DNA of 64,000 nt from NCBI RefSeq assembly GCF_054482525.1, contig NZ_CM137006.1; one strand, written 5' to 3'. Numbering within the stretch: the first letter of the stretch is position 1; each line of letters starts with the position of its first letter. Shown here piece by piece: positions 1,538 through 21,002 of this stretch. The notes beneath the pieces were generated by a model. That model was not told where the DNA came from. It did no database searches and saw nothing but the letters and a program-made list of their open reading frames with translations. Both the position numbers and the translations under genes were made by a program.

Positions 1538-1882
1538 TTAGATACTAAAGGAAGAACCGCAACCGCAGGTGCTTTTCGCGTTCGGGTTGGTCACGATGAA
1601 ACGAGAACCTTCCAGACCTTCGGTATAATCAACGGAACCGCCGACCAGATATTGCAGGCTCATCGGATCAACCACCAGGCCAACGCCCTGTTTTTCGATG
1701 GTCATATCGCCTTCGTTCACCTGATCATCAAAGGTGAAACCATACTGGAAGCCGCTGCAACCGCCACCGGTGATATACACGCGTAATTTCAGATTCGGGT
1801 TATCTTCGTCAGCGATCAGGCTTTTAACTTTGTTGGCTGCTGCGTCGGTAAACTCCAGCGGCAGTGCTACGTCATCACTCAT
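1538..1882 (-). CDS. erpA: Iron-sulfur cluster insertion protein ErpA (A-type carrier)
   Basis: ORF 1538..1915 trimmed to [11 protein letters not shown]... (114 aa); C-terminal CGCGSSF cysteine motif. Confidence 0.93.
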
Positions 1883-1963
1883 ATTTTGCTCCAAACGACA
1901 TCGGCAATTGGGCAAATTCTAACCCAATAATAATCGCCATTATCTAATACCCTGGTATTTCGT

Positions 1964-3403
<1,440 letters not shown>

Positions 3404-17473: not shown

Positions 17474-17650
17474 TAAAGTATGTAACTGGTTAATTTACAT
17501 TCTGGTCGCGTGCGCAAATACGCTTTTCCTCACACAGTTGTCAAGTGTTACGTTTAGATAATTGCTATCCGGAAAAGCATCTGCTATTTATAGCGGCCTC
17601 ATTTTTCCCCCGAACATGGGGATCGATAGTGCGTGTTAAGGAGAAGCAAC

Positions 17651-18106
17651 ATGCAAGAAGGGCAAAACCGTAAAACATCGTCCCTGAGTATTCTCGCCAT
17701 CGCTGGGGTGGAACCATATCAGGAGAAGCCGGGCGAAGAGTATATGAATGAAGCCCAGCTGGCGCACTTCCGTCGTATTCTGGAAGCATGGCGTAATCAA
17801 CTCAGGGATGAAGTCGATCGCACCGTTACACATATGCAGGATGAAGCAGCCAACTTCCCGGACCCGGTAGACCGTGCAGCCCAGGAAGAAGAGTTCAGCC
17901 TCGAACTGCGTAACCGCGATCGCGAGCGTAAGCTGATCAAAAAGATCGAGAAGACGCTGAAAAAAGTGGAAGACGAAGATTTCGGCTACTGCGAGTCCTG
18001 CGGTGTTGAAATTGGTATTCGCCGTCTGGAAGCGCGCCCGACAGCCGATCTGTGCATCGACTGCAAAACGCTGGCTGAAATTCGCGAAAAACAAATGGCT
18101 GGCTAA
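17651..18106 (+). CDS. dksA: RNA polymerase-binding transcription factor DksA
   Basis: ORF trimmed to [19 protein letters not shown]... (151 aa); C4 zinc finger [26 protein letters not shown]. Confidence 0.95.
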
Positions 18107-18134: not shown

Positions 18135-18162
18135 GGCGGGAAATGCTCCCGCCTTATTTTTT
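18135..18162 (+). terminator. Intrinsic terminator downstream of dksA
   Basis: ggcggga-aatgc-tcccgcc stem followed by ttatttttt; ends about 11 nt before the gluQ ATG. Confidence 0.6.
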
Positions 18163-18172
18163 GTTCAACGAG

Positions 18173-19069
18173 ATGACTGACACACACTATATTGGCCGCT
18201 TTGCCCCCTCTCCTTCCGGCGAGCTTCATTTTGGCTCTCTGATTGCCGCGCTTGGCAGCTATTTACAGGCTCGCGCCCAGCAAGGTCGCTGGCTGGTACG
18301 CATTGAAGATATCGACCCGCCTCGTGAAGTTCCCGGTGCCGCAGAGACTATCCTGCGCCAGCTGGAACATTACGGCCTGCACTGGGACGGCGATGTTCTC
18401 TGGCAATCGCAACGTCACCACGCCTATCGCGAAGCACTCGCCTGGTTACATGAGCAAGGATTAAGTTATTACTGCACCTGCACGCGTGCGCGTATTCAAA
18501 GCATTGGCGGTATTTACGACGGTCATTGCCGGGAATTGCATCATGGACCAGACAACGCCGCAGTACGTATCCGCCAGCAGCATCCGGTCACGCAATTTAC
18601 TGATCAGCTGCGCGGCATTATTCACGCCGACGAAAAACTGGCGCGGGAAGATTTTATTATTCATCGCCGTGATGGTTTGTTTGCCTATAACCTGGCGGTG
18701 GTGGTGGATGATCACTTCCAGGGCGTGAGCGAAATTGTCCGCGGGGCAGATTTGATCGAACCGACAGTGCGGCAAATCTCGCTGTACCAGCTTTTTGGCT
18801 GGAAAGTGCCAGATTACATCCATTTACCGCTGGCGCTTAATCCACAAGGCGCTAAACTTTCCAAGCAGAATCATGCGCCTGCGTTGCCGAAAGGCGATCC
18901 GCGCCCGGTACTAATCGCGGCACTTCAATTTCTGGGTCAGCAGGCAGAAGCACACTGGCAGGATTTCAGCGTCGAGCAAATCCTTCAGTCAGCCGTCAAA
19001 AACTGGCGGCTTACCGCCGTGCCTGAGTCGGCAATTGTAAATTCAACATTCTCAAATGCGTCATGCTGA
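18173..19069 (+). CDS. gluQ: Glutamyl-Q tRNA(Asp) synthetase
   Basis: Class I aaRS-like [14 protein letters not shown] motif. Start taken at [10 protein letters not shown]; the ORF track allows an upstream TTG at 18143. Confidence 0.88.
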
Positions 19070-19128
19070 GCTATGATTAGCCGCTATTTTTTTGTCCTGA
19101 ATGATGTTTGACACTACCGAGGTGTACT

Positions 19129-20526
19129 ATTTTTACCCGAGTCGCTAATTTTTGCCGCAAGGTGCTAAGCCGCGAGGAAAGCGAGGCTGAACAGGCAGTC
19201 GCCCGTCCACAGGTGACGGTGATCCCGCGTGAGCAGCATGCTATTTCCCGCAAAGATATCAGTGAAAATGCCCTGAAGGTAATGTACAGGCTCAATAAAG
19301 CGGGATACGAAGCCTGGCTGGTTGGCGGCGGCGTGCGCGACCTGTTACTTGGCAAAAAGCCGAAAGATTTTGACGTAACCACTAACGCCACGCCTGAACA
19401 GGTACGTAAACTGTTCCGTAACTGCCGCCTGGTGGGTCGCCGTTTCCGTCTGGCTCATGTGATGTTTGGCCCGGAGATTATCGAAGTTGCGACCTTCCGT
19501 GGACATCACGAAGGTAACGTCAGCGACCGCACGACCTCCCAACGCGGGCAAAACGGTATGTTGCTGCGCGACAACATTTTCGGCTCCATCGAAGAAGACG
19601 CCCAGCGCCGCGATTTCACTATCAACAGCCTGTATTACAGCGTGGCAGATTTTACCGTCCGTGATTACGTTGGCGGCATGAAGGATCTGAAAGACGGCGT
19701 TATCCGTCTGATTGGTAACCCGGAAACGCGCTACCGTGAAGATCCGGTACGGATGCTGCGCGCGGTACGTTTTGCCGCCAAATTGGGTATGCGTATCAGT
19801 CCTGAAACCGCAGAACCGATCCCTCGCCTGGCTACCCTGCTGAACGATATTCCTCCTGCACGTCTGTTTGAAGAATCTTTGAAACTGCTGCAAGCGGGCT
19901 ACGGTTACGAAACCTATAAGCTGCTGTGTGAATATCACCTGTTCCAGCCGCTGTTCCCGACCATTACCCGCTACTTCACGGAAAATGGCGACAGCCCGAT
20001 GGAGCGGATCATTGAACAGGTGCTGAAGAATACCGACACGCGTATCCATAACGATATGCGCGTGAACCCGGCGTTCCTGTTTGCCGCCATGTTCTGGTAC
20101 CCACTGCTGGAGACAGCACAGAAGATCGCCCAGGAAAGTGGCCTGACCTATCACGACGCTTTCGCGCTGGCGATGAACGACGTGCTGGACGAAGCCTGCC
20201 GTTCACTGGCAATCCCGAAACGTCTGACGACGTTAACCCGCGATATCTGGCAGTTGCAGTTGCGTATGTCCCGTCGTCAGGGTAAACGCGCCTGGAAACT
20301 GCTGGAGCATCCTAAGTTCCGTGCTGCTTATGACCTGTTGGCCTTGCGAGCTGAAGTTGAACGTAACGCTGAACTGCAGCGTCTTGTGAAATGGTGGGGT
20401 GAGTTCCAGGTTTCCGCGCCACCAGATCAAAAAGGGATGCTCAACGAGCTGGATGAAGAGCCGTCACCGCGTCGCCGTTCTCGTCGTCCACGCAAACGCG
20501 CACCGCGTCGTGAGGGTACCGCATGA
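19129..20526 (+). CDS. pcnB: Poly(A) polymerase I
   Basis: Nucleotidyltransferase motif [18 protein letters not shown]. Start placed at ATT 19129 ([11 protein letters not shown]...), the published non-canonical AUU start; the ORF track begins at TTG 19108. Confidence 0.9.
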
Positions 20527-21002
20527 CAGTGGCGTATATTGCCATAGGCAGCAATCTGGCCTCTCCACTGGAGCAGGTCAATGCTGCCCTGAAAGCATTA
20601 GGCGATATCCCTGAAAGCCGCATTCTTGCCGTTTCTTCGTTCTACCGCACCCCACCGCTGGGGCCGCAAGATCAACCCGATTACTTAAACGCAGCCGTGG
20701 CGCTGGAAACCTCTCTTGCACCTGAAGAGCTACTCAATCACACACAGCGTATCGAATTGCAGCAAGGTCGCGTCCGTAAAGCGGAACGCTGGGGACCGCG
20801 TACGCTGGATCTCGACATCATGCTGTTTGGTAATGAAGTGATAAATACCGAACGCCTGACCGTTCCGCACTACGATATGAAGAATCGTGGATTTATGCTG
20901 TGGCCACTGTTTGAAATTGCGCCGGAGTTGGTGTTTCCTGATGGGGAGACGTTGCGTCAAATCTTACATACAAGAGCATTTGACAAATTAAACAAATGGT
21001 AA
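20523..21002 (+). CDS. folK: 2-amino-4-hydroxy-6-hydroxymethyldihydropteridine pyrophosphokinase (HPPK)
   Basis: 159 aa, [12 protein letters not shown]...; its start overlaps the pcnB stop as ATGA. Confidence 0.93.

Follow-up and report, generated by a model that had tools for sequence, protein, structure and literature searches.

Our analysis indicates, with high confidence, that translation of pcnB, the gene for poly(A) polymerase I (PAP I), starts at the AUU codon at positions 19129-19131, where a strong Shine-Dalgarno sequence and a weak codon disfavoured by IF3 would together keep this toxic enzyme scarce. The window, by which we mean the whole stretch of DNA that was analysed, comprises 64,000 nt of contig NZ_CM137006.1 (assembly GCF_054482525.1), and its pcnB region was read base by base. 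The first-pass annotation had placed the N-terminus of PcnB at ATT 19129-19131 and had pointed to an upstream TTG at 19108 that is in frame and would add 7 residues. Direct reading of the bases confirmed the coordinates and frame of the former, the position and frame of the latter and the count of 7 extra residues, the product being 465 aa long if read from ATT and 472 aa long if read from TTG. The accompanying claim that initiation is non-canonical is supported by the RefSeq start in 3 strains, a 99-species comparison, profile alignment and the literature. Only the first residue called for refinement, since it would be fMet and not the Ile that ATT literally encodes. The features of the region are as follows.

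17633-18106: dksA, from the list of open reading frames
18143-19069: gluQRS, from the same list, with its stop codon at 19067-19069
19049..19077, plus strand: sigma-70-like promoter (-35 TTCTCA, 17-nt spacer, -10 TATGAT), overlapping the gluQRS stop
19102-19104: TGA, the nearest in-frame stop upstream
19105-19107: TGT, between the in-frame TGA and TTG
19108-19110, plus strand: in-frame TTG that opens the mechanically called ORF
19108 to the stop at 20524-20526, plus strand: mechanically called ORF opening at TTG, 472 aa
19111-19128: six further codons, ACA CTA CCG AGG TGT ACT
19119..19124, plus strand: Shine-Dalgarno GAGGTG, with a 4-nt spacer (TACT) before ATT
19129..19131, plus strand: ATT (AUU), assigned as the pcnB initiation codon from RefSeq, cross-species comparison, profile and literature
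19129..20526, plus strand: pcnB coding sequence, poly(A) polymerase I, 465 aa plus stop (profile, PDB identity, RefSeq)
19132 onwards: codons TTT ACC CGA GTC GCT AAT TTT TGC CGC AAG
19162..19164, plus strand: in-frame GTG, codon 12 of the 465-aa form and start of the 454-aa form in some pipelines
19282..19284, plus strand: internal in-frame ATG (Met52), preceded by GAAGG
20523-21002: folK, from the list of open reading frames

Identity, reading frame and annotation of pcnB

The sequence at 19129-20526 is the E. coli pcnB gene, encoding poly(A) polymerase I. Over the whole protein, the product scored 996.9 bits against the NCBIfam PcnB equivalog NF008634 (cut-off 702) and 523 against TIGR01942 (cut-off 305.65), while every CCA-adding enzyme model fell under its own cut-off on this product. 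All 415 of 415 aligned residues are identical to chain A of PDB 3AQM, which is E. coli PAP I. The gene order dksA-gluQRS-pcnB-folK was found both among the ORFs of the window and in the RefSeq annotation of an identical strain, and positions 18900-19500 share 100% identity with E. coli PCN033 and 97.5-99% identity with 5424 of 5426 complete E. coli genomes. The closest known system is pcnB of E. coli K-12 (b0143; Binns & Masters 2002, Mol Microbiol 44:1287), which has the same gene, synteny and start context. We found no relevant difference from it; the alleles differ, with WP_014639063.1 (PCN033-like) in the strain of the window and WP_010723084.1 in the K-12 derivative.

Two further observations concern the locus. 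The ATG of folK at 20523 overlaps the pcnB stop (ATGA, 20523-20526), an arrangement that would be compatible with translational coupling of folK to a weakly translated pcnB. Of the 5424 hits that the start region of pcnB gave in E. coli genomes, three lie on records labelled as plasmid rather than chromosome, and these are probably mislabelled replicons or assembly artefacts.

Counted from the TTG at the head of the ORF, ATT 19129-19131 is codon 8, in the same frame and preceded by 7 codons (TTG ACA CTA CCG AGG TGT ACT). Given the TGA at 19102-19104, TTG 19108 is the only canonical in-frame start upstream of ATT in the window. RefSeq/PGAP places the start of the pcnB coding sequence at window position 19129 in all three strains compared, namely the identical PCN033, a K-12 derivative and one variant strain. 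The RefSeq coding sequence at 1730-3127 of locus L001 maps to window 19129-20526 (465 aa from ATT), and the RefSeq protein of the PCN033-like allele, WP_014639063.1, has the N-terminus MFTRVANF.... Position 1 of NF008634 aligns to residue 8 of the TTG ORF, which is the ATT codon. Public databases hold three N-terminal forms of this exact protein, with 465 aa (ATT), 472 aa (TTG) and 454 aa (GTG 19162), each of them found on at least 1000 contigs; their protein cluster also includes a 468-aa member. This disagreement on the pcnB start is systematic and comes from callers restricted to ATG, GTG and TTG. The practical value of the result lies in annotation: gene callers that accept only these three codons mis-start pcnB.

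Conservation of the start region across Enterobacterales

We scanned one genome per species with a degenerate pattern for the codons of TRVANFCR and obtained at least 120 loci, 99 of which encode the conserved N-terminal peptide. These 99 Enterobacterales species form our comparison set and represent about 45 genera from the Enterobacteriaceae, Erwiniaceae, Yersiniaceae, Hafniaceae, Budviciaceae and Pectobacteriaceae, plus Arsenophonus; since the TRVANFCR peptide is required, the set covers only taxa with that PcnB N-terminus. Among the matches listed, 93 of the 99 species have ATT at the start position and 6 have ATC, with ATG, GTG and TTG in none, and GAGGTG occupies -10 to -5 with the same sequence and position in 99 of 99. 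A single ATT triplet is not improbable. Among the matches listed, the conservation of the start codon (ATT or ATC in 99/99) and of GAGGTG (99/99), set against a variability of 43-52% per column upstream, exceeds chance.

The pattern of variation changes at the same point. Across codons 2-16, variability per column was 0.018, 0.047 and 0.291 at the first, second and third codon positions (86 unique sequences among the matches listed), and from -30 to -11 the corresponding values were 0.52, 0.43 and 0.43 (again among the matches listed). Three-base coding periodicity thus sets in at ATT, with none upstream, among the matches listed. Since there is a coding signature downstream of ATT and none upstream, these findings indicate that translation begins at ATT and that TTG is an incidental part of the 5' UTR. 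Within E. coli, the 61 bases at window positions 19090-19150 are identical in 5415 of 5424 genomes, K-12 derivatives included, and this near-invariance gives comparison within the species no power to tell TTG from ATT.

The codons that follow the start show a pattern of their own. The second codon, TTT (19132-19134), is invariant, third base included, in the 86 unique species sequences among the matches listed, and synonymous sites of codons 2-4 are less variable than those further downstream (among the matches listed). This low variation in codons 2-4 suggests that the initiation region may be under constraint beyond its amino-acid sequence.

We also observed shifted and tandem forms of the start. 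All 6 of the 6 Pectobacteriaceae loci among the matches listed (Brenneria, Dickeya, Samsonia and Lonsdalea) carry ATC at the ancestral start and ATT one codon upstream (GAGGTGTATT ATC TTT). In this family, either AUC initiates or the AUU start has shifted by one codon in the direction of the Shine-Dalgarno sequence, and the ATT-ATC arrangement is probably the result of a single ancestral event. Two Arsenophonus loci carry a tandem ATT ATT. The same tandem arises in E. coli NZ_AP027764.1, the one genome inspected of the nine that differ in the 61-nt start region, where C19127T converts ACT, the codon in the spacer, to a second ATT. In some PcnB proteins, the conserved N-terminal segment is immediately followed by a long, charged insertion of low complexity with a high content of D, E, K and R; it was found at nine loci, from Rahnella, Serratia, some Yersinia, Rouxiella and Hafnia psychrotolerans, and it shifts the catalytic GGGVRD motif past residue 120.

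Alternative starts and the 5' leader

Two in-frame codons downstream of ATT have been used or proposed as starts, GTG 19162 and an internal ATG. PMC2939334 discusses an ATG, '+1(b)', downstream of the sigma-S promoter pS1, together with western blots on which anti-PAP I gives two bands, without deciding the matter. We infer that this ATG is ATG 19282, and that it is also the start first proposed by Liu & Parkinson 1989. A minor short isoform made beside the AUU product from pS1 and the internal ATG appears unlikely to us, if still worth bearing in mind. Far less probable is that the main product starts at GTG 19162 (454 aa) or ATG 19282 (414 aa), with the ATT region as an untranslated leader. 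Such a start would fit the frequency of the 454-aa form in databases, the position of an ATG with a Shine-Dalgarno-like GAAGG after pS1, which itself lies downstream of ATT, and the two bands on western blots (PMC2939334). However, codons 2-16 are conserved as protein, with variation mostly at third positions, and so are translated (99 species among the matches listed); the match to the PcnB profile begins at ATT; and the activity of pS1 is confined to stationary phase in the absence of ppGpp (PMC2939334). Nor is GTG 19162 supported as a start in its own right, as the 11 preceding codons keep their protein sequence and vary only in a synonymous manner in the 99 species among the matches listed. 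Crystal structures are silent on the N-terminus, since the first residue of the constructs is number 35 or 36 in the TTG ORF.

The least credible alternative is that TTG 19108 starts a 472-aa protein in which ATT is an ordinary internal isoleucine codon. This TTG is a canonical start in the correct frame, it opens the mechanically listed ORF, its 472-aa product has been deposited on at least 1000 contigs, and E. coli, Citrobacter and several further Enterobacteriaceae carry the codon, but it lacks an upstream Shine-Dalgarno sequence (TTTTTTGTCCTGAATGATGT), the only one lying downstream of it, and neither the curated PcnB profile, which leaves residues 1-7 of the TTG ORF uncovered, nor the RefSeq start agrees with it. 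Among the matches listed, 30 of 99 species have TTG at this position, 5 have ATG, 5 have the stop codon TAG and the remainder have other sense codons. Going upstream from ATT, the first in-frame stop lies at a distance of 4 to 40 codons across the 99 species among the matches listed, and 54 of the 99 have no canonical in-frame start between that stop and ATT (among the matches listed). The seven putative codons also vary non-synonymously, with Thr, Pro, Ile, Asn or Ala at -1 and Cys or Trp at -2, and show no periodicity.

A promoter scan of 18850-19350 returned a single promoter-like match, the sigma-70-like element at 19049..19077. The major pcnB promoter, pB, is located upstream of ATT (PMC2939334), and the element at 19049..19077 is probably this published promoter. 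If it is pB, TTG 19108 lies within the leader. The motif CTATGATTAG (19071-19080), which holds the -10 element and directly follows the gluQRS stop, is kept in 88 of 99 species among the matches listed. Its distance to ATT ranges from 36 to 72 nt, and the stretch between the motif and the Shine-Dalgarno sequence varies in both length and composition (among the matches listed). We rejected TTGACA at 19108-19113 as a -35 element, as no -10 hexamer at 16-18 nt from it passed the scan. An out-of-frame ORF running across the pcnB start from ATG 19101 to TAA 19148 (15 codons) was likewise rejected, as it lacks a Shine-Dalgarno sequence and neither Citrobacter nor Enterobacter has the ATGs of E. coli; the cross-species count for this small ORF, 46 of 99 among the matches listed, is confounded by an ATG inside the conserved -10 motif.

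GAGGTG complements the 16S 3' end, CACCUC, over 6 nt. We found no occluding RNA structure in 19084-19170, where the minimum free energy was -10.9 kcal/mol (z = +1.16) and 181 of 200 shuffled sequences folded at least as well. Since the leader folds no better than shuffled sequence, occluding structure is not what limits pcnB expression, nor does any such structure mask TTG 19108. The ribosome-binding site of pcnB has been termed 'poor' (PMC3561954 and one other paper), a label at odds with an invariant 6-nt GAGGUG placed 4 nt before AUU at near-optimal spacing.

AUU initiation and the scarcity of poly(A) polymerase I

For AUU as the experimentally determined start, for its limiting effect on expression and for the involvement of IF3, we rely on published work and on what may be inferred from it. 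The AUU start of pcnB goes back to Binns & Masters 2002, as cited in PMC2939334, PMC3561954, PMC4245954, PMC5499595 and PMC9410913, and is said to limit PAP I synthesis (PMC3561954). The background given by the first-pass annotation, that E. coli pcnB starts at AUU and that this limits poly(A) polymerase, agrees with these citing papers. PMC3561954 further credits Binns & Masters with noting that PAP I homologues in many Proteobacteria are likely to start at AUU as well. pcnB and infC are the two E. coli genes confirmed to be AUU-initiated (PMC4245954, PMC5499595, PMC9410913, bioRxiv 10.1101/063800). In a reporter system, near-cognate codons including AUU initiate at about 1-2% of AUG (bioRxiv 10.1101/063800), IF3 discriminates against AUU (PMC9410913), and a cell contains about 30-50 molecules of PAP I, whose deregulation is lethal (PMC3561954). 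Neither a tetracycline ribosome-profiling study (TetRP) nor a 2026 N-terminomics study (TRAINSPOTTER) lists pcnB in its main text or supplements, and the gene is also missing from the main text of a retapamulin start-site preprint, as would be expected of a protein present at about 30-50 copies per cell.

Together, these reports suggest how initiation at this site may work. The strong and correctly spaced GAGGUG (19119-19124) would place the 30S subunit at AUU, where initiator fMet-tRNA would pair imperfectly with the codon and IF3 would discriminate against the resulting complexes. Inefficient initiation at AUU would then limit PAP I, an enzyme toxic in excess, to a few tens of copies per cell. 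The in-frame TTG 19108 merely belongs to the 5' UTR. The other AUU-initiated gene, infC, which encodes IF3 and lies outside the window, resembles pcnB in that a weak AUU follows a Shine-Dalgarno sequence and is subject to discrimination by IF3 (PMC5499595, PMC9410913, bioRxiv 10.1101/063800). The two differ in their circuitry, since infC forms a closed feedback loop in which its own product is the discriminator, whereas pcnB would be no more than a passive target of IF3 activity.

It is possible, though on balance doubtful, that AUU itself has been selected and not just any weak codon, so that AUU, paired with the invariant strong GAGGUG, would turn PAP I synthesis into a conserved readout of IF3 activity, and through it of growth rate, across the Enterobacterales. 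Selection specific to AUU is hinted at by the Pectobacteriaceae, as ATT lies directly upstream of ATC in 6 of 6 of their loci among the matches listed, as if AUU had been shifted along by one codon instead of disappearing. If this were true, only the coupling to IF3 and the relocation would be new, since the phylogenetic conservation of AUU was reportedly noted by Binns & Masters. The AUU start of pcnB itself has been known since 2002 and is correctly annotated in RefSeq, and our analysis adds no new biology to it. As one of two confirmed AUU starts in E. coli, pcnB is a textbook exception to the start-codon rules, and its AUU start explains how a toxic RNA-tailing enzyme stays scarce.
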